From an uncultured Candidatus Saccharibacteria bacterium (GTDB lineage Bacteria > Patescibacteriota > Minisyncoccia > Phycocordibacterales > CSBR16-119): a stretch of DNA of 64,000 nucleotides. Position 1 is the stretch's first letter. Each line of letters begins with the position of its first letter. Shown here in pieces: positions 4,997 through 48,946 of this stretch. The stretch covers positions 58,482 to 122,481 of the forward strand of contig CAZLAD010000001.1 in assembly GCA_964557535.1 (NCBI GenBank), given 5' to 3'. The notes beneath the pieces were generated by a model. The model saw only the letters and a list, made by a program, of their open reading frames with translations. It was not told the DNA's origin and ran no database searches. The position numbers were made by a program, and so were the translations under genes.

Positions 4997-6432
4997 ATAT
5001 GAAATTAGAAGAGATTTTAAAAAACATTGAAGTCCTCGAAACCGTTGGCTCGGCCGATGTTATGGTCGAGCACCTTTCTCTTGATTCTCGAAATATAAAA
5101 CCAGATACTTTGTTTTTTGCCGTGTCGGGGACGAAAGTCGACGGACATGCTTTTATCGATACGGCGATTTCGGCTGGTGCCAAAATAATTGTTTGTGAAA
5201 AATTTCCAGAAAATTTAAATTCTGAAGTTACTTACGTTCGCGTCGAAAATACGAGTGAAATTGTCGGGCTTGTGGCTAAAAATTTTTTCGGCAACAACGA
5301 TTTTGAAATGAAAATTGTCGGTGTGACAGGCACGAACGGCAAAACCACGATTGCGACAATGCTTTATCAATTATTTACTTTGCTTGGCCACAAAGGCGGA
5401 CTACTTTCGACGGTTGAAAATATTATCGGGACAGAAGTTCTTCCGGCGACGCATACGACAGGCGATGCAATTCAAATCCAAGAAAATTTGGCCAAGATGC
5501 GCGAGGCCAAGACGAAATATTGCTTCATGGAGGTGAGCTCGCATGCGATTGATCAGAATAGAATTGCCGGAATTGATTTTACCGGCGGAATTTTTACAAA
5601 CTTGACCCAAGACCATCTCGATTACCATCAGACCCTTGATGAATACGCCAAAGTCAAGAAAGCTTTTTTCGATTCTTTAACCAATCAAGCTTTTGCACTT
5701 TATAATTCTGACGATAATCGGGGAAGTTTTATGGTTGCTGATACTCACGCAAAAATAATTTCATACGGTAAAGTTGCCGCAGATTTTATTTTTAAAGTAA
5801 AAAAATCTTCTGCCGACGGACTCGAGCTCGTCATTAACGATACGATAGTTGTAACGTCGCTTGTCGGAGAATTCAATGCGTACAATATCACAGCAATATT
5901 TGCGGCCGCCGTGACACTCGGCGCCAAGCCAGACGACGTCGTAACCGCAATCGCGAAGCTTTCCGGCGCGCGCGGACGCATGGAAAAAGCAACGAGCGCT
6001 TCGGGAATTTTTGGCTTGGTTGATTATGCGCACACGCCGGACGCTCTCGAAAATGTTTTGAAGACGATCAATACTTTCAAACAAGGTCGTGTCGTTACGG
6101 TTTTTGGTGCGGGTGGCGACAGAGATAAAACCAAGCGTCCCATAATGGGTGAAATCGCCTCAAGACTTAGTGATGTTGTTGTCGTTACATCAGATAATCC
6201 GCGAAGCGAACGACCCGAAGACATCGCCGATGACATTCTCGCCGGGATCAAAGATAAAACAAATGTCGAGACGATTCTCGATCGTCGTGAAGCGATCAAG
6301 CGGGCGGTCGAGATCTCAAAGCCTGGGGACATTGTTTTGGTCGCGGGCAAAGGCCACGAAGATTATCAGGATGTCGCCGGAGTCAAAAGTCATTTTTCTG
6401 ATTTAGAAGTTTTGAGAGAATTTTTATCATGA
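4993..6432 (+). CDS. murE: UDP-MurNAc-L-Ala-D-Glu:meso-DAP ligase (MurE)
   Basis: Mur ligase P-loop VGVTGTNGKTT. The DNPR motif (VTSDNPRSE) indicates meso-diaminopimelate specificity. The first ATG is at 4999; 4993 is a TTG. Confidence 0.92.
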   Translation: MNMKLEEILKNIEVLETVGSADVMVEHLSLDSRNIKPDTLFFAVSGTKVDGHAFIDTAISAGAKIIVCEKFPENLNSEVTYVRVENTSEIVGLVAKNFFGNNDFEMKIVGVTGTNGKTTIATMLYQLFTLLGHKGGLLSTVENIIGTEVLPATHTTGDAIQIQENLAKMREAKTKYCFMEVSSHAIDQNRIAGIDFTGGIFTNLTQDHLDYHQTLDEYAKVKKAFFDSLTNQAFALYNSDDNRGSFMVADTHAKIISYGKVAADFIFKVKKSSADGLELVINDTIVVTSLVGEFNAYNITAIFAAAVTLGAKPDDVVTAIAKLSGARGRMEKATSASGIFGLVDYAHTPDALENVLKTINTFKQGRVVTVFGAGGDRDKTKRPIMGEIASRLSDVVVVTSDNPRSERPEDIADDILAGIKDKTNVETILDRREAIKRAVEISKPGDIVLVAGKGHEDYQDVAGVKSHFSDLEVLREFLS

Positions 6433-9046: not shown

Positions 9047-10290
9047 CATTAAACGAGCTTTACAAAATTTTTTCTGAGAAAAATCTCAATATCTCGACCG
9101 ACACTAGGAAGATTTCACCCGGCGATATTTTTATCGCGCTTCGGGGGGAAAATTTTGATGGTGGAAAATTTATCGATGAAGCTTTTGAAAAAGGCGCGAG
9201 TTTCGTTGTGTCGGAAAATTCTGACATGCTGATGGATCGAAGTGTGTACGCGACGGACTCGCTTATGGCGCTTCAAGAATTTGCGAAAATGCACCGCGAC
9301 AGTCTGCAGATTCCGATAATTGCCATCACCGGTTCGAATGGTAAGACGACGACCAAAGAACTGGTCAGAGTTGTGCTTGCGAAAAAATACAAAGTTCTCG
9401 CAAGTCCAGCAAGTTTTAACAATCACATCGGCGTACCACTTACGATTCTTTCTATCAAACCAGAACATGAAATCGCCGTGATTGAAATGGGGGACAATCA
9501 CGAAGGTGAAATCAGACGTCTTTGCGAAATTGCGCGACCGACGCACGGACTTATTACGAATATCGGGCGTGATCACATTGGCGAAGCGGGCGGGGTAGAG
9601 GCAAATGTTCGGTCAAAACTTGAATTTTATGAATATTGTAAAAATTCCGGAGCGATAAACTTCCTCAATAAAAATGATGAAATTCTATTCCAACATTCGT
9701 ACGAATGTGCGAATGAATTTTATGTAGAGGGAAAAGTTTTGGAGGCGAATGATTATTTGAAAGTCGAAATCGATGGTCAAGAAATCAAAACCAAACTTGT
9801 CGGCGACTACAATCTCGACAATATTCGCGCAACTTTCACAATCGGCCGACATTTTGAAGTTCCAGTAGAAGAAATTGTTTCGGCTCTCGAGAATTACGAA
9901 CCGACAAACAATCGTTCGCAGAAAGTTATGACCGAGAAAAATGAAATTATTCTCGATGCTTACAATGCAAACCCGGACAGCATGAAGCTCGCACTAGAAA
10001 ATTTCGCCAAAATAAAAACCGATCGTAAGAAAATTGCAATCTTGGGCGATATGTTTGAGCTTGGAAGTTTCGCGGGGGAAGAACACCAAAAAGTTTTGGA
10101 CCTTGTGTCTGATTTAAAAATTGAAAGCTATTTCGCTGGCGTAGAATTTAAAAAGCTTGGAGTTGGATTTGAAACAACAAACGAACTTATCGAACATTTA
10201 AAAGAAAACAAAATTGAAAATTCTCTCATCCTCATCAAAGGCTCGCGAGGTATGAAGATGGAAAAAGTTTTGGAAGAAAATCTTTTATAG
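9043..10290 (+). CDS. murF: UDP-MurNAc-tripeptide:D-Ala-D-Ala ligase (MurF)
   Basis: P-loop ITGSNGKTTTKE and Mur ligase central and C-terminal domains. ATGA overlap with murC. Confidence 0.9.
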   Translation: MTLNELYKIFSEKNLNISTDTRKISPGDIFIALRGENFDGGKFIDEAFEKGASFVVSENSDMLMDRSVYATDSLMALQEFAKMHRDSLQIPIIAITGSNGKTTTKELVRVVLAKKYKVLASPASFNNHIGVPLTILSIKPEHEIAVIEMGDNHEGEIRRLCEIARPTHGLITNIGRDHIGEAGGVEANVRSKLEFYEYCKNSGAINFLNKNDEILFQHSYECANEFYVEGKVLEANDYLKVEIDGQEIKTKLVGDYNLDNIRATFTIGRHFEVPVEEIVSALENYEPTNNRSQKVMTEKNEIILDAYNANPDSMKLALENFAKIKTDRKKIAILGDMFELGSFAGEEHQKVLDLVSDLKIESYFAGVEFKKLGVGFETTNELIEHLKENKIENSLILIKGSRGMKMEKVLEENLL

Positions 10291-10302
10291 CTCAAATGAA
10301 AA

Positions 10303-10327
10303 ACCCGTCACATGGACGGGTTCTTCT
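10303..10327. terminator. Bidirectional intrinsic terminator between murF (+) and the 10345..10659 gene (-)
   Basis: Stem ACCCGTC/GACGGGT with loop ACATG, followed by TCTTCT on the + strand and an A-run on the other side. Confidence 0.6.
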
Positions 10328-10344
10328 GCGTTGTCATGGGTTGC

Positions 10345-10659
10345 TCAACGTGCGATCTTGCCCTTGAGGGCCCCACTCCACCGACCTTGCTTGTAGGCAA
10401 TGATCACGGTGTCACCAGGCTTGATCACCTCGTAAAGTTCCTTCGAGATGAAGACGCCGATCTCTCCCGCTTCCGTCGTGGCGTAGAAGAGCGCAACGTC
10501 ATCGTAAGTCGGATAGCCATTCAAGGCCAGCCGGAGTCGTCTTGTCCGATTCAGGTGGGTGATCGTGACCTTTTCGTAGCGGCTCTCGACGAACAGAAGT
10601 TCCAGCCAGCTAGGGACAGGAAGCGGGGTGTTTGAAAAAGCGAAGGGGACGTGTGTCAT
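10345..10659 (-). CDS. Hypothetical protein with a C-terminal AbrB/MazE-like (swapped-hairpin) motif, in a GC-rich islet
   Basis: About 55% GC. The C-terminal GEIGVFISKELYEVIKPGDTVII fits the G.v.iPkeiR..lgi..GD.v.i pattern of AbrB/SpoVT/MazE domains. A minus-strand promoter TTGACG-17-TATTTT lies at 10688-10716, so the second Met (MTHVPF, 10659) is the likely start; the ORF track extends to 10716. Confidence 0.45.
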   Translation of the reverse strand: MTHVPFAFSNTPLPVPSWLELLFVESRYEKVTITHLNRTRRLRLALNGYPTYDDVALFYATTEAGEIGVFISKELYEVIKPGDTVIIAYKQGRWSGALKGKIAR

Positions 10660-10687
10660 TGTTGGGGTGCGTTGGTTTCTTAAATAC

Positions 10688-10716
10688 AAAATATCAGAAG
10701 GATTACAAAACGTCAA
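10688..10716 (-). promoter_or_regulatory. Sigma70-like promoter for the 10345..10659 gene
   Basis: On the minus strand: TTGACG, a 17-nt spacer, then TATTTT, about 30 nt upstream of the ATG. Confidence 0.45.
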
Positions 10717-10740
10717 GGGTATTTAGCCTTCGCTTAAAAA

Positions 10741-10749
10741 TGCTATACT
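10741..10749 (+). promoter_or_regulatory. Extended -10 (TGcTATACT) 9 nt upstream of the mreB ATG; leaderless-type promoter
   Basis: TGcTATACT at 10741-10749, ATG at 10759, and no Shine-Dalgarno. Confidence 0.55.
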
Positions 10750-10758
10750 CCATTCCAC

Positions 10759-11772
10759 ATGGCATTTTTTTCAAAGAAAATCGGAGTTGATTTAGGCACG
10801 GCCAATATTTTGGTCTATGTGCCGGGCAAGGGCGTCGTTTTGAACGAACCGTCGGTTGTGGCCGTGTCTGAACAAGACAACCGTATCCTCGCCATTGGTG
10901 ATGCCGCCAAACAAATGATTGGTAGAACGCCCGAAAATATCGTTGCGCATCGTCCGATGAAAGACGGCGTGATTGCCGACTATCGTATGACCGAGGCAAT
11001 GCTCAAATATTTCATCGGTCGGGCAATGGGAAGTTTCTCGCTTTGGAAACCAGACGTAATGGTGTCGGTGCCGGCTGGAGTTACTTCGACCGAACGTCGT
11101 GCTGTTGTCGAAGCGACCATGAAAGCTGGTGCTAGAAACGCATATATTGTAAAAGAACCAATTCTCGCCGCAATCGGCGCCGGAATTCCAATTTATGAGT
11201 CGCGTGGGCACATGATTGTCGACATCGGCGGAGGTACAACCGACGTGGCGGTGATATGCCTCGGCGGAATTGTCGCATGTACGTCGGTCAAAGTCGCTGG
11301 AGATAAAATTGATTCTGCGATTGCGGATTTTATCAAGAAAACTTTTAATCTCGCGATTGGTGATCGCACTGCCGAACAAGTGAAAATCAAAATTGGTTCA
11401 GCCGTTGTGATGGAAGAACCACTTCTCGCAACTATCAAAGGCCGGGATTTTGTCCAGGGACTTCCACGCACCGCGCAGGTGTCGACGAACGATATAGTGA
11501 AAGCAATTGATAAAGAACTCCGTGCCATCGTGCGTGCTATCAAAGATGTACTCCAAGAAACTCCGCCGGAACTTGCCTCTGACATCATCGATCAGGGTAT
11601 AATTCTGACAGGCGGATCATCTTTGCTTCGAAATCTTCCAGAACTCATCTATCAGAAAACTGGCGTGAAGGCGAGGCTTGCCGATGAACCGCTTTATTGT
11701 GTCGTGCGGGGAACGGGCGTCGCGCTTGATCACTTGGATACCTACAAACGTTCGATTATTTCTAAACGTTAA
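10759..11772 (+). CDS. mreB: Rod-shape-determining actin homolog MreB
   Basis: IGVDLGTANILVYV, DIGGGTTDVAVI and LTGGSSLLRNL actin-fold motifs. Confidence 0.93.
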   Translation: MAFFSKKIGVDLGTANILVYVPGKGVVLNEPSVVAVSEQDNRILAIGDAAKQMIGRTPENIVAHRPMKDGVIADYRMTEAMLKYFIGRAMGSFSLWKPDVMVSVPAGVTSTERRAVVEATMKAGARNAYIVKEPILAAIGAGIPIYESRGHMIVDIGGGTTDVAVICLGGIVACTSVKVAGDKIDSAIADFIKKTFNLAIGDRTAEQVKIKIGSAVVMEEPLLATIKGRDFVQGLPRTAQVSTNDIVKAIDKELRAIVRAIKDVLQETPPELASDIIDQGIILTGGSSLLRNLPELIYQKTGVKARLADEPLYCVVRGTGVALDHLDTYKRSIISKR

Positions 11773-11775
11773 ACT

Positions 11776-12447
11776 ATGGGACTTGAAGAATTGAAAAATG
11801 GTTTGAATCATCACGCGTATCTGATCGAAGGTGATTTGGAGCTTTCTTTCAAGGAACTTTTGCTTGCACTCGAACGACTGGAGATACCGACGCTTGGTAA
11901 TCCAGACCTTTTTATGAAAGAATACGAAAACCTGCTCATCGATCACGCGCGTGAGATCAAAGATTTCCAAAGTGAATCAGCTTCCGAGAAAAACAAAAAG
12001 AAAATCATGATTTTAAAAACACGGATGTTTTCTTATCCGGCCCAGAACGCACTTCTGAAAGTTTTCGAAGAACCACGTCCGGGCGTGGTCGTGTTTCTCA
12101 TCATGCCGGATTCGACAAAACTTTATCCGACGCTTCGTTCTAGACTTCTTGGCACTGTCGGTGAATACGCCCCGCATGATCAGCTAAAAAAAGATGCGAA
12201 AGTTTTCTTGAAGGGGACAATCAAAAATCGCTTGGACTTCCTGAAAAAGTTTTTGGATATCGAATCAAAGCCCAAGCTCAAAGAAGTCGCACTTAATTTT
12301 CTAAACCAACTCGAAGAAGAACTGGCCAAAAGCGATACTTTGGCGGACAAGGACAAAGTCAAAGACATTTATATGGTCAAAAAATACATCGGCGATCAGG
12401 GTTCGAGCCCAAAGATTCTCCTTGAGCATTTGGCAGCGATTTTGTAA
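11776..12447 (+). CDS. holB: DNA polymerase III delta'-like clamp-loader subunit (HolB-like)
   Basis: NALLKVFEEPRPGVVVFLI...TLRSRL matches the delta' sensor and SRC region. No P-loop is present, which is typical of delta'. Confidence 0.6.
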   Translation: MGLEELKNGLNHHAYLIEGDLELSFKELLLALERLEIPTLGNPDLFMKEYENLLIDHAREIKDFQSESASEKNKKKIMILKTRMFSYPAQNALLKVFEEPRPGVVVFLIMPDSTKLYPTLRSRLLGTVGEYAPHDQLKKDAKVFLKGTIKNRLDFLKKFLDIESKPKLKEVALNFLNQLEEELAKSDTLADKDKVKDIYMVKKYIGDQGSSPKILLEHLAAIL

Positions 12448-12477
12448 GTTTTGGGTATAACATTTGAAAATGTCGTA

Positions 12478-12582
12478 TTGTTAAAAGTTCGCGTACGCGG
12501 ATTTTTAACAATATTTAGATTTATTAATATATTAATAAATTCATAAATCCGTAAATTCATAAACTAATTTATGAATTTACGG
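12478..12582. repeat. Cluster of three consecutive palindromes in the holB-to-GC-island spacer
   Basis: (1) TTGTTAAAA...TTTTAACAA enclosing the palindrome CGCGTACGCG (12478-12511). (2) A perfect 22-nt palindrome ATTTATTAATATATTAATAAAT (12519-12540). (3) CCGTAAATTCATAAA-ctaa-TTTATGAATTTACGG with 15-bp arms (12549-12582). Confidence 0.8.
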
Positions 12583-12638
12583 ATCTTAATACCTTACATC
12601 AGTTAGGTGATGCAAAGGTATTGAACTATTACGGAGAC

Positions 12639-12666
12639 TTGACAAGAATTTTGATTCGTGTATAAT
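12639..12666 (+). promoter_or_regulatory. Near-consensus sigma70 promoter (TTGACA-16-TATAAT)
   Basis: TTGACA at 12639-12644 and TATAAT at 12661-12666. An AAAGAGG RBS-like motif lies 10 nt upstream of the ATG at 12724. Confidence 0.7.
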
Positions 12667-12723
12667 ACCCCACGAACCAAAGCTCTTGTGGCAATATCGC
12701 CACATACAAAAGAGGTTCGCAAA

Positions 12724-13215
12724 ATGCCCCAATTCCTCAAGCGACCGTGGCACGTCCTCGGTCTGGTGGCCTTGTTGGCCATCGGTTATACGATCCCACT
12801 GCAGATGAAGGCCGCCAAGTTCGACAGCTACACCGCCAGCGCGCTGACCGTTCCGGATGATCCGGCGCTCGTGACCCACGACCGGTTGGCCGTGAGCTAC
12901 GAGAACCATTTCGCCAATTGGACCCTGATCGACGGCCGCGGCACCAGCACGGTGAGCGTGACCACGGATGACCCGTGGAGCGTGAGCACCAGCGAAAGCC
13001 CGCATTTCGAAGGATATCAGCATTACATCATCGAGAACTTCAAGCACGACGTGAACTTCAGCATTTCGGATGTGAACGTGAGCGCCCAGGTGGCCGGTGG
13101 CCTGCTGGTGCCCATCGTGGGCCCGGCGGACAGCGATCATCAGCGATGGAGCAGTACGGCCCGCGATTACCGTTTGGCAGTGCGCGTGGTGAACCTGCGA
13201 ACGTGTCGGTGCTAG
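12724..13215 (+). CDS. Secreted or exported hypothetical protein (about 164 aa) in a 60% GC cassette
   Basis: N-terminal hydrophobic signal/TM (WHVLGLVALLAIGYTIPLQ). GC3-rich, E. coli-like codon usage (ctg, ggc, agc, acc, ccg), which is foreign to the host. It has its own promoter upstream and a terminator downstream. The antisense ORF 12586..13221 is judged an artefact. Confidence 0.55.
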   Translation: MPQFLKRPWHVLGLVALLAIGYTIPLQMKAAKFDSYTASALTVPDDPALVTHDRLAVSYENHFANWTLIDGRGTSTVSVTTDDPWSVSTSESPHFEGYQHYIIENFKHDVNFSISDVNVSAQVAGGLLVPIVGPADSDHQRWSSTARDYRLAVRVVNLRTCRC

Positions 13216-13285
13216 AAGCACGAGCTTCCTAGCACCTTCACTCTTTCCGCCCGCACGGGAACCCCCGAGCGAGTAGGAAACCCCG

Positions 13286-13319
13286 AACCCCGGCCCGTAA
13301 GCCGGGGTTCTTCTTTTTT
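13286..13319 (+). terminator. Rho-independent terminator of the GC-rich cassette
   Basis: Stem AACCCCGGC/GCCGGGGTT with loop CCGTAA, followed by TCTTCTTTTTTA. Confidence 0.8.
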
Positions 13320-13333
13320 ATAAAACAAATTTC

Positions 13334-13342
13334 TGCTACAAT
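13334..13342 (+). promoter_or_regulatory. Extended -10 TGcTACAAT 6 nt upstream of the frr ATG (leaderless)
   Basis: TGCTACAAT, then ttgccc, then ATG at 13349. Confidence 0.55.
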
Positions 13343-13348
13343 TTGCCC

Positions 13349-13903
13349 ATGCAATTTAATTTCAAACCTTTCGAAGACGCGGTCAAAAATACCAAAGATT
13401 GGCTTACCAAAGAATACGCCTCGCTTCATACCGGCGCTGCGAGTCCGATGGTTCTTGACGGTATCATGGTTGATTCTTATGGTACGCGTCAGCCGATCAA
13501 AAACGTCGCCTCGATTTCGATCGAAGACCCAAAAACTTTGCGTGTGATGCCGTGGGACAAGGGTCAGCTCAAAGAAATCGAAAAAGAAATCATGACTTCG
13601 GACCTTGGACTTTCTGTTGTAATCGATGCCACCGGGCTTCGCGTGATTTTTCCCATGCTTACGACCGAGACCCGTGAAAAACTTGTTAAGGTTTTAAAAA
13701 CCAAACTCGAAGACGCGCGAGTAACTGTTCGCAAGGAGCGCGAAAACAATTTACGAGAAATTGATCGTATGGCGCGCGAAGGTGAAATGTCCGAGGACGA
13801 GAAAATCCGCGCCAAGGATCGTTTGCAGGGTATAGTCGATGAAGCCAATACCGATCTTGAAAAGATATTTTTAGCCAAAGAAGCCGTTGTAATGGGTAAA
13901 TAA
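13349..13903 (+). CDS. frr: Ribosome recycling factor
   Basis: Full-length RRF similarity (…HTGAASPMVLDGIMVDSYG…TREKLVKVLKTKLEDARVTVRKERENNLREI…). The ORF track starts at a TTG at 13343. Confidence 0.9.
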   Translation: MQFNFKPFEDAVKNTKDWLTKEYASLHTGAASPMVLDGIMVDSYGTRQPIKNVASISIEDPKTLRVMPWDKGQLKEIEKEIMTSDLGLSVVIDATGLRVIFPMLTTETREKLVKVLKTKLEDARVTVRKERENNLREIDRMAREGEMSEDEKIRAKDRLQGIVDEANTDLEKIFLAKEAVVMGK

Positions 13904-13907
13904 TTTT

Positions 13908-15011
13908 GTGTCCGTTATTATTTTTATAATCATTTTGGCCGTTCTTATTATCGTTCATGAATACGGGCACTTTATTGTGGCGAAAAAAAGCGGAATTCGG
14001 GTTGACGAATTTGGATTGGGCTACCCACCAAAAGCCAAAACATTATTTAGAAAAAACGGAACAGATTTTACTTTAAACTGGCTTCCGTTTGGCGGATTTG
14101 TAAAAATCTTTGGTGAAAATCCGGACGATGAATCACTCGAAGGAATTCATAAAAACTCTGCATTTGTAAACAAGCCAAAACTTATTCAAGCAGGGGTTCT
14201 TTTTGCTGGTCCGGCGTTTAATTTTATTTTCGCTTGGCTCATTATCATCATTACACTGTTCGTCGGACTCCCAACAACTATCAATGATTCTATGCAGGAA
14301 CGATTTGTTTCTGATCAGGCGACAATTGTTACTCAGGTCGTGTCTGGTTCGCCGGCCGAAGTCGCCGGACTTGTCGTGGGTGACAAGATTTCTTCGGTTG
14401 TGGTTGGTGTTGAAAAATACGATCATATAAATACCAAAGATTTGCGTGATTTAGTTATTGCCAATCCTGAAAAAACATTTGTTATAAATTACAAAAGAGT
14501 CGACGCAGAAAATAGCGTGGAATTAACACCAAAATTAGATGTCGAAACGGGCGAAAAATTATTGGGTGTTGGGATAGATAATTACGGTATTTATAAACCA
14601 AATTTTAGCAATGCTGTCCTCGACAGTTTTAAATTTACGGGCGCAATGATTGCTAACATATCTGTGGCTTTGTGGTCGCTTATCAAAGGGGTTTTTGTTG
14701 GTGGGGCAGATATTGCAAATTTGACTGGCCCGATTGGAATTGTCGGACTCGTGGGAGATGCAAGCAAAATGGGCTTGGCGTACGTTTTGACATTTACCGC
14801 TCTTATATCGATAAACCTAGGACTCATCAATTTGATACCTTTTCCGGCTCTAGATGGCGGAAGACTATTGTTTTTGCTTATTGAGAAAATAAAGGGTGGA
14901 CGAGTGAACTACAAAATTTTAAATTTTTTGAATTTAATTGGTTTTTCAATTTTGATACTTCTGATGTTGTTTATAAGCTACAAAGACATTGGGAGACTCA
15001 TAGGATCCTAG
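13908..15011 (+). CDS. rseP: Site-2 zinc metalloprotease RseP/RasP family (M50) with PDZ domain
   Basis: HEYGHFIVAK HExxH motif in TM1, a central PDZ-like region, a C-terminal LDGG motif, and multiple TM helices. GTG start. Confidence 0.85.
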   Translation: MSVIIFIIILAVLIIVHEYGHFIVAKKSGIRVDEFGLGYPPKAKTLFRKNGTDFTLNWLPFGGFVKIFGENPDDESLEGIHKNSAFVNKPKLIQAGVLFAGPAFNFIFAWLIIIITLFVGLPTTINDSMQERFVSDQATIVTQVVSGSPAEVAGLVVGDKISSVVVGVEKYDHINTKDLRDLVIANPEKTFVINYKRVDAENSVELTPKLDVETGEKLLGVGIDNYGIYKPNFSNAVLDSFKFTGAMIANISVALWSLIKGVFVGGADIANLTGPIGIVGLVGDASKMGLAYVLTFTALISINLGLINLIPFPALDGGRLLFLLIEKIKGGRVNYKILNFLNLIGFSILILLMLFISYKDIGRLIGS

Positions 15012-15127
15012 CCCAAATCTCTGGGGTTGACAGGTATTTGACATTAATTTGCTTTAATGATAGTATACAAACTACAAAGATTTTGAATTTAAAAAGAATA
15101 AATTATTAGCAATTTAAAGGTATATTT

Positions 15128-29476: not shown

Positions 29477-29887
29477 ATGACAACAACAAACAAAGACAAA
29501 TATTTTGAAGCCGTTGGACGCAGAAAAACTGCAACCGCTCGTGTGCGCCTAACTCCGGCTTCCAAGACTTCTGTTGTGGTTAACGACAAGACTTTGGTCC
29601 AATACTTCCCAGTCGTCGACATGCAGATGGTCGTGAGTGAGCCTTTCGAAAACAGTAATCTCGAAAAGAAATTTTCCGTTACGGCAAAAGTTTCTGGTGG
29701 CGGGATGAATGCTCAAGCCGAAGCTGTTCGACACGGAATCACTCGATGTCTAGTCGAATTTGACGAAACACTTCGAACATCTTTGAAAAAATCAGGATTC
29801 CTTAAACGTGATCCTAGGTCACGTGAACGACGAAAAGCGGGCTTGGCTCAAGCCGCTCGAAAGAGAAAACAATGGAGTAAACGCTAA
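29477..29887 (+). CDS. rpsI: Ribosomal protein S9
   Basis: GRRKTATARVRL...C-terminal KRDPRSRERRKAGLAQAARKRKQWSKR. Confidence 0.92.
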   Translation: MTTTNKDKYFEAVGRRKTATARVRLTPASKTSVVVNDKTLVQYFPVVDMQMVVSEPFENSNLEKKFSVTAKVSGGGMNAQAEAVRHGITRCLVEFDETLRTSLKKSGFLKRDPRSRERRKAGLAQAARKRKQWSKR

Positions 29888-29893
29888 GAAAAA

Positions 29894-29922
29894 GCCCCGC
29901 GTCAAACGTGGGGCTTTTTCTT
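29894..29922 (+). terminator. Rho-independent terminator after rpsI
   Basis: Stem GCCCCGCG/CGTGGGGC (one G-U wobble) with loop TCAAA, followed by TTTTTCTTATC. Confidence 0.8.
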
Positions 29923-30180
29923 ATCTGTGAAAAGTTATACACAGAAATATCAATTTATTGCTTTAAATATTTCAAGGAGAGTTATAATAAACGCAAGTAT
30001 AAGTTCTGTCTCCCTTGCGAAATAACCAAGGTCAAAAGACCTTATTAACATAATGGCAGTTCCGAGGAGGTTCTGTCAGAGTAGGTGGAAGAGGGTTCTT
30101 GGTAAGCTAGGTGGCCAGAGAGGGCCAAAGGGGGACAAAGGGCGTCCAGTTCTGGCGCCCTTTGTTCTACCTGGGATGCA

Positions 30181-30269: not shown

Positions 30270-30722
30270 ATGGACACCTTCACCATTGACTACGGAGTTA
30301 ATATTGTGGATATGTTGAAGATCCACAATATTAAGGTAAATACAAGTATCAAGACGAACAGCTTCGAGATGCTCCATGAAGGAAAAGGGATACAGGATAT
30401 CCAGTATGAAGTCTTCAAAGCAACGCGGAGCCACCGAAGTCATTGGGCTGGCTATGTGGGTATTCGTACTCATGAAGTTCGTGAGGAAATGGCAGAAAAG
30501 GGTTTCCGGAATGCTACGCTCCAAGAACTGATAGCTTATGGCGTCTCCGAGAAATGCCCACCAACCAACTCGGGCATAAGAATTCTTGATTGGGCTCTAG
30601 AAGGCCTTCCAGGATACATCCCTCGTTTTGATAAAGGTAAGTACAGTACCTGGCTCACTGTTGATAAAAACGAATGGTCGTGGCACGGCCAAGAAAAGTT
30701 CCTCGGCATTCGTACACAGTAA
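30270..30722 (+). CDS. Hypothetical protein (150 aa)
   Basis: Coherent ORF with its own promoter (30181) and terminator (30739-30768). No motifs. Moderately GC-elevated. Confidence 0.45.
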   Translation: MDTFTIDYGVNIVDMLKIHNIKVNTSIKTNSFEMLHEGKGIQDIQYEVFKATRSHRSHWAGYVGIRTHEVREEMAEKGFRNATLQELIAYGVSEKCPPTNSGIRILDWALEGLPGYIPRFDKGKYSTWLTVDKNEWSWHGQEKFLGIRTQ

Positions 30723-40475: not shown

Positions 40476-40481
40476 AGAAAA

Positions 40482-40520
40482 AGCAAAAATCCGCCAGACA
40501 GGCGGATTTTTGCTTCGTTT
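40482..40520. terminator. Intrinsic terminator after rplU
   Basis: 14-bp stem AGCAAAAATCCGCC/GGCGGATTTTTGCT with loop AGACA, then TTCGTTT. Confidence 0.8.
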
Positions 40521-44680: not shown

Positions 44681-45373
44681 CTATGAACCTGCCGGCCGAA
44701 TACCGTTGTTCACGAAGCCGCTTCCGTTGCCCATCTGTACTTCGACTCGTGTTCCTTTCGGAACAGAGAAGAGATACTGGTCATTTCCAGCGATTGTCCC
44801 CGTGGGGACGGCCGTCGGGGCAGGTGCTGAAGCCTGTTGTGTCGGCGGGGGCTGATGGCTTGTCGCTGGCGATGTGCTGGTCTGCCAGAAACGATTCCAT
44901 GCGTCACGTAACACTCCGAGCAATGCCAATGCCAGGGCCAACAGAAAAAGGCCGACCAAGATGGCGAGAACAGGCGGCACCCAATCGAAGTGTTTACCCC
45001 AGTTGATACCGGAGTATTTCGTTCGAGCGTTACAGCCGTCGGCTGCCATCTTGGCATCCAACGGCTTGCCTTGGACCACGAAGGTCGTATCCACGTGTTG
45101 CGACACGCAGATATCCTTTTCGTAGGCCGTGCCGGAGCACCACCTGCGGGTTTCCTTGCTGGGCACCGCTTTCTCGTAGGAGAGATGCACGGTGTCTCCG
45201 CGCAGGTGCAGGCCCTCGAAGTTCTCCTTGGTGAAGGGCGAGGGATTGTTGCAGGCGCTCGCGAAGAGCAGGATGATGCCCAAAAGGGCGATCACTGGGA
45301 GCTTCCAGGTCGGTTTCAGGTTGTTCATGATCATTGGGAATGTGCCGGTCAGGGCGGTTTGGTTTATAAGCAT
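44681..45373 (-). CDS. Putative lipoprotein or membrane protein with a Pro/Thr/Gln-rich linker, in a 57% GC island
   Basis: Signal plus lipobox-like ...LLFASAC. A second TM (VLAILVGLFLLALALALLGVL) and a low-complexity PATSHQPPPTQQASAPAPTAVPT segment. Foreign codon usage. The start is probably at an internal Met (45334 or 45328). Antisense ORFs are artefacts. Confidence 0.5.
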   Translation of the reverse strand: MLINQTALTGTFPMIMNNLKPTWKLPVIALLGIILLFASACNNPSPFTKENFEGLHLRGDTVHLSYEKAVPSKETRRWCSGTAYEKDICVSQHVDTTFVVQGKPLDAKMAADGCNARTKYSGINWGKHFDWVPPVLAILVGLFLLALALALLGVLRDAWNRFWQTSTSPATSHQPPPTQQASAPAPTAVPTGTIAGNDQYLFSVPKGTRVEVQMGNGSGFVNNGIRPAGS

Positions 45374-47087: not shown

Positions 47088-47097
47088 TTATAAGAAA

Positions 47098-47140
47098 CAA
47101 AATCCGTCTCTCGAATACTCTCGGGACGGATTTTGTTTTT
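47098..47140 (+). terminator. Rho-independent terminator
   Basis: Stem AATCCGTC/GACGGATT followed by TTTGTTTTT. Confidence 0.7.
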
Positions 47141-48322: not shown

Positions 48323-48946
48323 TTACGCTGCCCTCCGTCGTTTCTGTTCGCCACCGTGTAGGGTCCTTAGAGCAGCTTCGGCAATAGTTCCGACACCAAC
48401 CACGCGAATGTTTCTTTCTGTCGCGTAGTCGAGTAGTTCGCGCAGGTCCGTTGGAATCAATCCATCGTAGAGATGGACTTCTTGGATGAATCCGCGTCGC
48501 AACAGGTCTCGAGTCAAAGCTGGGTCTTCCGGATATAGGACCAAGTAAGAAACCATCTTTTTGTGGGAGGTTTCTCGGTTGGCGACCTCGCGTAGTTCTT
48601 CTGGCCCGCGTTTGCCGGAGACCAATAGTACAATCTTGCGACTCCCGTGCGATGGCATGTTCTGGTCGGCGCTGAAGATTGGCCCACCAGGATACAGCTG
48701 GAGATATGTTCGAAAGATCAACGCCTTGTTCTTTTTGGCTCTTTTTAGGGCGTCAACGTCATCCTTTTTTACTCGCCAAAGGCGTACCTCGTGCTGAATG
48801 TCGGTCACGGTGGCCGATTGGAGGAAATCCTCATCGTGACGACCGTCGATCGTCAGAAGTTCTACGATGACCCTGTCGGTATGGGTATCGTTGGTGTAGA
48901 CATACCATGTTGGTGCGTATGTCAACTTGTCCGTGAGCTTTTTCAT
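48323..48946 (-). CDS. Hypothetical protein (207 aa) in a GC-elevated islet
   Basis: About 52% GC. Coherent ORF. No recognised motifs. Confidence 0.45.
   Translation of the reverse strand: MKKLTDKLTYAPTWYVYTNDTHTDRVIVELLTIDGRHDEDFLQSATVTDIQHEVRLWRVKKDDVDALKRAKKNKALIFRTYLQLYPGGPIFSADQNMPSHGSRKIVLLVSGKRGPEELREVANRETSHKKMVSYLVLYPEDPALTRDLLRRGFIQEVHLYDGLIPTDLRELLDYATERNIRVVGVGTIAEAALRTLHGGEQKRRRAA

Follow-up and report, generated by a model that had tools for sequence, protein, structure and literature searches.

A species-specific array of hairpins sharing an 8-nt unit in the holB-frr interval of a Saccharibacteria genome

Directly downstream of holB, the genome of an uncultured Saccharibacteria species carries five back-to-back dyads (H0, IR1, IR2, IR3 and H4) in the 191 nt between the holB stop codon and the -35 element of the next promoter (12448-12638; all positions refer to the window, which is the whole 64,000-nt stretch of DNA that was analyzed). 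A palindrome density of this kind arising by chance is excluded, and the palindromes are not independent events, as their arms consist of copies of a single 8-nt unit, TTNNTAAA, in both direct and inverted orientation. Judged from the alignment with related loci, the palindromes are a recent insertion of approximately 165-180 nt, specific to one Saccharibacteria species. We read the array as a group of young, locally generated hairpins with a mostly ordinary explanation, the first member probably being a terminator.

The genes around the array all lie on the + strand and comprise two Mur ligase-family genes, a 107-aa open reading frame (ORF), mreB, holB, a GC-rich ORF, frr and an M50 protease gene (rseP). 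An earlier note on this DNA had described a spacer of 105 nt, which is the span of the palindromes; the spacer itself measures 191 nt to the -35 element and 276 nt to the ATG of the GC-rich ORF. That ORF is part of a cassette consisting of a consensus promoter, a 5'UTR hairpin, the GC-rich ORF and a terminator. The promoter lies outside the insertion, is 75-91% identical in relatives and is the sole TTGACAAG..TATAAT site within the window. The cassette ORF (12724-13215) has a third-position GC content (GC3) of 0.82 compared with 0.36-0.48 in the neighboring genes, belongs to no Pfam family and has a single distant relative among 1.84 billion representatives. There is no tRNA in the window, and no integrase or transposase among the flanking genes that were scanned or have precomputed Pfam calls (approximately 7.7-18.5 kb of the window). 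Elsewhere in the window, two further GC-rich ORFs, at 44681-45373 and 48323-48946, are preceded by different promoters and lack palindrome arrays upstream.

Anatomy and non-randomness of the array

The three palindromes described in the earlier note (IR1, IR2 and IR3) are all present where it placed them (Table 1), although their extent has to be revised: the arms of IR3 are 17 nt long rather than 15, IR1 has perfect outer arms of 11 nt (TATTGTTAAAA/TTTTAACAATA), and H0 and H4 are two further dyads. The stability of the elements differs widely. H0 forms a hairpin in both RNA and DNA folds, although a weak one (-0.4 kcal/mol), and IR2, which consists entirely of A and T, also folds weakly (-3.7 kcal/mol). 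IR3 reaches -19.2 kcal/mol on either strand. In H4 the outer arms AATACCTT/AAGGTATT enclose the inner pair CATCA/TGATG, and the fold energy is approximately -14 kcal/mol on both strands. Public annotations call a 54-aa minus-strand ORF across the palindromes, which we judge to be spurious, given that a protein database search with it returns only itself.

Table 1 Features of the mreB-frr region (window coordinates)
Feature	Position	Strand	Description	Basis
mreB	10759-11772	+		
holB	11776-12447	+	DNA polymerase III delta'; last gene of the mreB-holB pair	Pfam DNA_pol3_delta2, E=1.8e-14
Lineage-specific segment	12454-12635	+	~165-180 nt of extra DNA, no counterpart in any relative	blastn blocks
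H0	12460-12473		Small dyad ACATTT-GA-AAATGT (ACATTTGAAAATGT)	Read from sequence
IR1, full	12476-12513	+	A-rich arm TATTGTTAAAA, core GTT-CGCGTACGCG-GAT, T-rich arm TTTTAACAATA, then TTTAGATTTATT	
IR1, inner description	12478-12511		TTGTTAAAA-gtt-CGCGTACGCG-gat-TTTTAACAA	
GC core of IR1	12490-12499		CGCGTACGCG	
Period-8 array	12504-12583		AT-rich, ~10 units TTNNTAAA/TTTANNAA, both orientations	TRF, 12-mer scan
IR2	12519-12540		22-nt perfect palindrome ATTTATTAATA|TATTAATAAAT	Own reverse complement, verified
Extra direct copy of IR3 half-unit	12536-12548	+	TAAATTCATAAAT	Inverted-repeat search, 13 nt, 100% complementary
IR3	12547-12584		17-bp perfect arms ATCCGTAAATTCATAAA / TTTATGAATTTACGGAT, loop CTAA	Inverted-repeat search
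H4	12586-12623		Nested dyad TTAATACCTT-a-CATCA-gttagg-TGATG-ca-AAGGTATTGA	Inverted-repeat search
Promoter of GC-rich cassette	12639-12666	+	Sigma-70 type, TTGACA-16-TATAAT	12/12 consensus matches
GC-rich cassette ORF	12724-13215	+	163 aa, signal-peptide-like N-terminus	GC 0.62, GC3 0.82
Cassette terminator	13285-13310	+	Strong GC-stem terminator, kept in relatives	10 pairs, 8 GC, then TTCTTTTTT
frr	13349-13903	+		

The shared unit of the arms is visible as a period-8 array that begins in the T-rich arm of IR1 and includes IR2 and IR3. Tandem Repeats Finder (TRF) reports a period of 8 for 12504-12583, with 4.5-5.1 copies and 76-81% matches, and a 12-mer scan of the same segment returns a match every 8 nt. 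Exact TTNNTAAA/TTTANNAA sites number 7 in 110 nt, compared with 2.3 per kb in the window (0.26 expected). The unit recurs in several forms: TTGTTAAA twice (the arms of IR1), TTAATAAA twice (IR2), TTCATAAA three times and TCCGTAAA twice (IR3, plus the extra direct copy at 12536-12548), and TAAATTCATAAA is found in three exact copies. The extra TAAATTCATAAAT copy lies 16 nt upstream of the copy within IR3 and pairs with 12567-12579. The 16-nt sequence TTCATAAATCCGTAAA is present 1.5 times and is then followed, after a 4-nt loop, by an inverted repeat of itself.

When arms are counted only if they are perfect, are 8 nt or longer and enclose a loop of 20 nt or less, inverted-repeat arms cover 101 nt of the 191-nt spacer. 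Among 5000 dinucleotide-preserving shuffles the mean was 4.2 nt and the maximum 48, and a 17-nt arm was reached in none. A sliding scan of the 64 kb gave 46 nt in arms for the best other 191-nt stretch and at most 32 nt for other stretches below 33% GC. Hence, the earlier description of an exceptional density of dyad symmetry holds, and the compositional artefact that the earlier note had named as its possible undoing does not account for it. The folding of the spacer is also far from that of random sequence, with -68.6 kcal/mol (z=-10.2) for the + strand RNA, -54.6 kcal/mol (z=-9.6) for the - strand RNA and -40.7 kcal/mol (z=-8.5) as DNA.

The array sequence is identical in 7 contigs from seven different samples (L001-L008, of which L003 and L006 are one contig) and is therefore not an assembly artefact; SRR12487045, SRR12900997 and ERZ4208449 are among the samples in which the species occurs. 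Among these strains the whole block 11650-12995, including holB, is invariant, with mosaic differences of approximately 1% in the flanks; because holB is equally invariant, the identity of the spacer is uninformative on constraint. All strains being identical, no intermediate alleles of the array were seen.

Comparison with related loci

We compared the locus with 12 related Saccharibacteria loci found through holB homologues of 63-96% identity (L009-L012, L014-L019 and L021-L023). Between holB and frr, all of them except L023 carry from one to three modules that each run from a promoter to a terminator. One module is always a GC-rich ORF with a signal-peptide-like N-terminus, whose promoter (TTGACAAG...TATAAT) and GC-stem terminator are homologous to 12639-12666 and 13285-13310, respectively. 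L023, compared at the level of promoter and terminator, has the latter but lacks a consensus promoter. In eight of the related loci, blastn homology to the window ends at 12447-12453 and restarts at 12636-12638. From the holB stop codon to the first -35 element, 10 related loci have 3-29 nt and L010 has 91 nt, compared with 191 nt in the window, and the 3-29 nt spacers contain no hairpins or palindromes. Given that relatives carry the cassette behind such short, palindrome-free spacers, we regard the cassette as old and the palindromes as recent, and the array as an addition that the cassette does not need.

This age difference bears directly on the earlier proposal of an att/dif-like recombination site marking the point at which the GC-rich cassette was inserted. 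The cassette is present in all related loci but L023, in each case without the palindromes, so these do not mark its boundary: the cassette of the relatives is older and the array is species-specific. A lack of association with the boundary is the outcome that the earlier note had named as refuting its proposal. Like dif, the target of XerC/D, the array is AT-rich, partly palindromic and was seen in a single copy, but its best match to the dif sequences of E. coli or B. subtilis has 13 mismatches in 28 positions, which 87% to 97% of shuffles equal. The cumulative GC skew climbs monotonically from 0 to 4.3 over the window, with no switch or inflection at 12.5 kb, and the array is therefore not at a replication terminus. 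With integron attC sites and cassette arrays it shares a richness in imperfect palindromes beside a small, variable, foreign-looking ORF and a variable number of cassettes. In contrast to attC, the array lies upstream of the cassette and occurs in one species only, each cassette has its own strong promoter and terminator, the cassettes of the relatives lack any such site, and no integrase gene is seen among the scanned genes that flank the locus. We rejected both kinds of site.

IR1 as a candidate terminator, and rival readings

A terminator scan selects IR1, with 18 pairs followed by a T-rich tail. As + strand RNA, IR1 folds into a continuous 18-bp helix with 3 G.U pairs (-19.9 kcal/mol), compared with -11.6 kcal/mol on the - strand, which is weaker by 8 kcal/mol because the three G.U positions become A.C mismatches. 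IR1 is situated on the transcribed strand, with 29 nt separating it from the holB stop codon upstream and 125 nt from the -35 element of the next gene downstream, and its A-tract/GC-stem/T-tract design recurs in gene-end palindromes at 29885-29923, 40481-40515 and 47095-47138. It thereby resembles intrinsic terminators of the A-tract/GC-hairpin/U-tract ('bidirectional') type in its A-rich 5' arm, GC core, T-rich 3' arm and place after a stop codon. It differs from them in a short GC core (4 GC pairs, at the top of the stem), an interrupted U-tract, a prediction on the + strand only and the three non-terminator hairpins behind it. The stem is weaker than those of the GC-rich terminators elsewhere in the window; the clear terminators of this genome have 8-10 GC pairs. 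Interrupted as it is, the tail after the full stem, UUAGAUUUAUU, passes the consensus scan, and a hairpin limited to the upper stem would have UUUUU immediately behind the GC core. In the same species, at least one other AT-rich long palindrome is found beside a terminator (L030, 7826-7867).

None of IR2, IR3 and H4 is followed by a U-tract, their + strand tails being CAUAAAUCCG, CUUAAUACCUU and ACUAUUACGG, respectively, and IR2 is without any GC pair; we therefore rejected all three as intrinsic terminators. Of the bidirectional terminator array that the earlier note had suggested, what is left is IR1, and on the + strand only, given its weak fold on the - strand.

Our tentative preference, held at slightly less than even confidence, is that IR1 serves as the terminator and insulator of holB and is followed by hairpins that slippage or template switching made and that have little or no separate function. 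The steps would be as follows. AT-rich hairpin DNA of approximately 165-180 nt would recently have been placed between the holB stop codon and the older cassette promoter. As + strand RNA, IR1 would then terminate the mreB-holB transcript in a Rho-independent manner and insulate it; in the relatives this transcript would enter the cassette promoter directly, with no terminator between. IR2, IR3 and H4 may have grown from the T-rich arm of the terminator through direct and inverted duplication of TTNNTAAA by fold-back or template switching, and would probably have no sequence-specific function, at most shielding the 3' end of the holB mRNA from exonucleases.

From what is established on quasipalindrome mutagenesis, slippage combined with fold-back or template-switch duplication is expected to leave arms that match perfectly, very small loops and a single unit in either orientation. 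The array shares with such cases its perfect arms, its loops of 0 and 4 nt and a single unit that is both direct and inverted, and duplication of TTNNTAAA in this way would explain the perfect arms and tiny loops; it differs in that its mechanism is read from the pattern alone. Alternatively, the perfect 17-, 13- and 11-nt arms could reflect selection on the palindromes as double-stranded DNA. Two further points weigh against termination at IR1: its strand asymmetry hangs on three positions, with a chance probability of approximately 1 in 8, and the relatives manage without a terminator after holB.

A shielding role would have a parallel in the REP/BIME elements and 3'-UTR hairpin arrays of E. 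coli, in which several stable hairpins are likewise packed directly 3' of a gene, and by analogy the array may share with REP/BIME a possible role in protection from 3'-to-5' exonucleases. REPs are multi-copy, repeat one sequence in alternating orientation within a cluster and depend on a RAYT transposase. In contrast, the array is single-copy in the DNA searched, its hairpins share only TTNNTAAA (in the arms of IR1-IR3) and no RAYT transposase gene is nearby.

The reading that comes closest to the terminator, although we consider it unlikely, is that the array is a scar without function, either filler or slippage DNA or the remnant of a lost extra cassette, with the hairpins as a mutational by-product. 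This would sit well with an array that is species-specific, dispensable in all 12 related loci and has an 8-nt periodicity typical of slippage. It is also consistent with what occupies the same position elsewhere: L017, L018 and L012, the last being the closest relative (holB 96% identical), carry an extra cassette of normal GC content, 'cassette A', which follows the holB stop codon and precedes the promoter of the GC-rich cassette, at precisely the place that the array takes up in the window. L010 has acquired at this point, independently, a hairpin of unrelated sequence whose arms are 14 bp long and which is flanked by an imperfect 21-nt copy of the 3' end of holB. However, when the array is aligned locally with the flanks of cassette A in L012 and L017, no significant residual similarity emerges (p of 0.14-0.2), and the match to the L010 spacer is marginal (p of approximately 0.013 before correcting for 5 tests). 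A weak connection with the dynamics of the cassettes persists through cassette A and the L010 hairpin. The resemblance of IR1 to a working terminator, with its + strand asymmetry, also argues against a mere scar, as does the general observation that long perfect palindromes are usually unstable unless they are selected.

An improbable alternative is that the unit TTNNTAAA is the half-site of operator or activator sites, giving species-specific control of the strong cassette promoter, in line with the stacked operators of the earlier note. Nine copies of TYNNTAAA, head-to-head and in tandem, fall within 110 nt just upstream of the consensus promoter, the arms pair perfectly and 16 nt separate the end of the last dyad from the -35 element. 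We found no positive evidence that they are operators: relatives that have the same promoter lack the array, the unit spacing of 8 or 16 nt places the copies on alternate faces of the helix rather than in helical phase, and the dyad centers, at approximately -68 to -178, do not overlap the promoter. Nor is there an adjacent regulator gene or a comparable cluster of the motif elsewhere in the 64 kb, the next-best one, with 5 sites, being a terminator, and the motif is not known to match any operator consensus.

The discreteness of the insertion relative to all relatives, a holB-frr slot that holds 1 to 3 cassettes among them and the duplication flanking the L010 hairpin could also point to a small non-autonomous mobile palindromic element (MITE, REP/BIME or PATE-like) or to a recombination site for gain and loss of cassettes, a reading that we regard as quite improbable. 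A mobile family would be expected to leave further copies, and the searches returned none. With blastn-short, the spacer gave only self-matches and 10-13-mers against the window and 19 loci, and there is no other copy in the window plus 19 kb more of the species (approximately 83 kb, a minority of the genome if its size is usual for Saccharibacteria) or in approximately 80 kb of related loci. The earlier note had suggested looking elsewhere in the genome for the 22-mer of IR2 and the CGCGTACGCG core; the core has no second copy in the window at up to 1 mismatch, which is the chance expectation for a 10-mer. In viral contigs the IR3 arms and the IR1 core had 0 matches, and one match to the 22-mer, in an AT-rich phage spacer, was judged to be chance. 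The IR3 arms matched three unrelated single hairpins with different flanks and loops in JGI metagenomes, a collection from which the species is apparently absent, and blastn against phages and plasmids gave only low-complexity matches of approximately 40 nt. The literature we searched held nothing on such arrays in Saccharibacteria. The lack of a second copy fits a local origin rather than a mobile family.

The architecture of the insert argues in the same direction. A 6-nt direct repeat, GTATTG, flanks 12481-12617, but it is within chance, and no inverted match of at least 5 nt joins the borders of the insert. At these borders there are neither the terminal inverted repeats nor the target-site duplication of a MITE-, REP- or PATE-type element. 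The five hairpins have no common sequence beyond TTNNTAAA in the IR1-IR3 arms, unlike REP/BIME, the cassettes of the relatives are not flanked by such sites, and the flanking genes scanned (approximately 7.7-18.5 kb) include no integrase or transposase. A bolder version, to which we give marginally less credence again, is that the array is the footprint or active site of an undescribed mechanism of cassette gain and loss at the holB-frr slot; if true, folded AT-rich TTNNTAAA palindromes would be a recombination substrate that swaps promoter-to-terminator modules for GC3-rich secreted proteins.

Least probable of all is a stand-alone structured non-coding RNA gene of approximately 190 nt: the + strand fold is very stable and its ends pair (12448-12452 with 12632-12638) to close a helix around the five hairpins, but perfect AT-rich palindromes fold equally well as DNA, a promoter of its own has at best 10/12 matches, there is no terminator at the end and no homologue in any relative, and cmscan against Rfam (E up to 1, over 11500-14000) finds nothing in 12448-12640, the only match being sub-threshold and at the cassette terminator.

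The holB-frr slot in Saccharibacteria

With IR1 as a terminator, the array would illustrate how a terminator together with a set of 3'-UTR hairpins can arise de novo in the reduced genome of an epibiont, and the stakes are modest. A de novo terminator at this place would uncouple a housekeeping operon from the very strong promoter that lies downstream of it.

The more unusual feature of the locus is not the palindromes but the hypervariable slot with its GC3-rich cassettes. Conserved as a slot, the spacer between holB and frr houses proteins that evolve rapidly, bear signal peptides and have a GC3 of approximately 0.8 in a genome of approximately 42% GC. Each of them comes with a consensus promoter, a 5'UTR hairpin that covaries and a strong terminator, and the GC3 of the slot proteins remains at 0.79-0.85, compared with 0.36-0.48 in neighboring genes, across a clade in which holB has diverged to 63% identity. 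Hence, it is the holB-frr slot, rather than the palindromes, that we put forward as a candidate for host-interaction biology in Saccharibacteria.

The holB-frr slot and its modules

Between holB and frr lies a conserved slot, which carries one to three promoter-to-terminator modules per locus. Besides the loci with tabulated slot positions, the comparison took in the related Saccharibacteria loci L014, L016, L017, L019, L021 and L022, and in every case one module encodes a small protein of 145–207 aa with a signal peptide or lipobox. This module has a GC content of 0.55–0.62 and a GC3 of 0.70–0.85, versus a GC3 of 0.36–0.48 in the housekeeping neighbours, and its high-GC codon usage is maintained across the clade down to 63% holB identity. 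Its flanks (promoter, 5'UTR and terminator) are conserved among the slot loci, the ORF body can hardly be aligned between loci (BLOSUM62 local scores 24–452), and for the ORF in the window a single distant relative was found among 1.84 billion representatives. That the high GC3 mirrors the codon usage of an actinobacterial host is speculation.

Only some relatives carry an extra normal-GC module, cassette A, at exactly the position of the window's palindrome array, the hairpin-rich spacer downstream of holB. It has its own promoter, 3–5 nt past the holB stop codon, and its own terminator, and it encodes a protein of 172–173 aa without a signal peptide; the copies in L012, the closest relative, and L017 are homologous (score 106). 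L017 also has approximately 400 nt without a called gene, bounded by a promoter-like site (TTGACAAG...TAGTAT) on one side and by a GC-stem terminator (GAACCCCGGC...) on the other; this stretch could be a decayed ORF in the same slot or a cassette for a non-coding RNA.

Positions of features in the window and in related or same-species loci
Feature	Locus	Position	Strand
Slot	Window	12639-13320	
Slot	L009	4683-5370	
Slot	L010	4755-5410	
Slot	L011	4693-5420	
Slot	L012	2185-2780	
Cassette A	L012	1495-2140	
Cassette A	L017	3670-4310	
Cassette A	L018		
Module without called gene	L017	4330-4783	
54-aa ORF	Window	12396-12560	-
5'UTR hairpin	Window	12687-12704	
19-nt inverted repeat	Window	12642-12660 / 12671-12689	
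Hairpin insertion	L010	4664-4724	
42-nt palindrome	L030	7826-7867	
AT-rich palindrome	Window	30298-30334	
ORF with this palindrome at its start	Window	30270-30722	
GAG to TAG	Window (L005)	13033 (5949-6260)	
Dense difference blocks	Window	9400-11650, 13384-13495, 15035-15123	

Promoter and leader of the GC-rich cassette

The 5'UTR of the cassette contains a small hairpin (TGTGGCAATATCGCCACA) that is conserved at the equivalent position in nine related loci, with compensatory double changes in five of its six predicted pairs (RNAalifold, 10 sequences). It may stabilise the leader or be a regulatory stem-loop. The -10 hexamer of the cassette promoter lies between the arms of a 19-nt inverted repeat (84% complementary), which could be a promoter-overlapping operator or part of the leader structure; only the inner TTCGTG/CACGAA part of the repeat is found again, in some relatives.

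Palindromes at the array site and elsewhere

An independent hairpin insertion, CATAGGACAGACCT-gtgtacat-AGGTCTGTCCTATG, lies in L010 at the site corresponding to the array. It is followed by an imperfect (17/21) copy of holB's final 21 nt, which resembles a long target duplication. The same-species contig L030 has an AT-rich, near-perfect palindrome of 42 nt (AATCTCTCTTATTTTTTATAT|ATGTAAAAAATAAGAGAGATT) approximately 5–6 kb past the left end of the window, in the gap between convergent genes and next to a GC-stem terminator. This genome thus has long AT-rich palindromes at other places too, singly and not in clusters. Within the window, another AT-rich palindrome with perfect 14-nt arms (TTAATATTGTGGAT-N9-ATCCACAATATTAA) is located where an ORF starts and could be an operator or 5' leader element.

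Public assemblies call a 54-aa gene that crosses the inverted repeats IR1–IR3 of the array and extends into the 3' end of holB. Its only homologue is itself, and it is most likely spurious.

Variation within the species

In one strain (ENA ERZ4208449), codon 104 of the GC-rich ORF is a stop codon with five SNPs nearby and the product is 103 aa; part of the population therefore carries a truncated cassette gene. Compared with the window, same-species contigs differ in mreB by as many as 56 SNPs that look synonymous and in frr by 11 SNPs within 110 nt; they also differ in the AT-rich spacer that precedes the sigma70_r4/HARE-HTH gene, which is rich in indels. The dense SNP and indel blocks alternate with long identical stretches, and such a mosaic is typical of strains that exchange DNA by homologous recombination.
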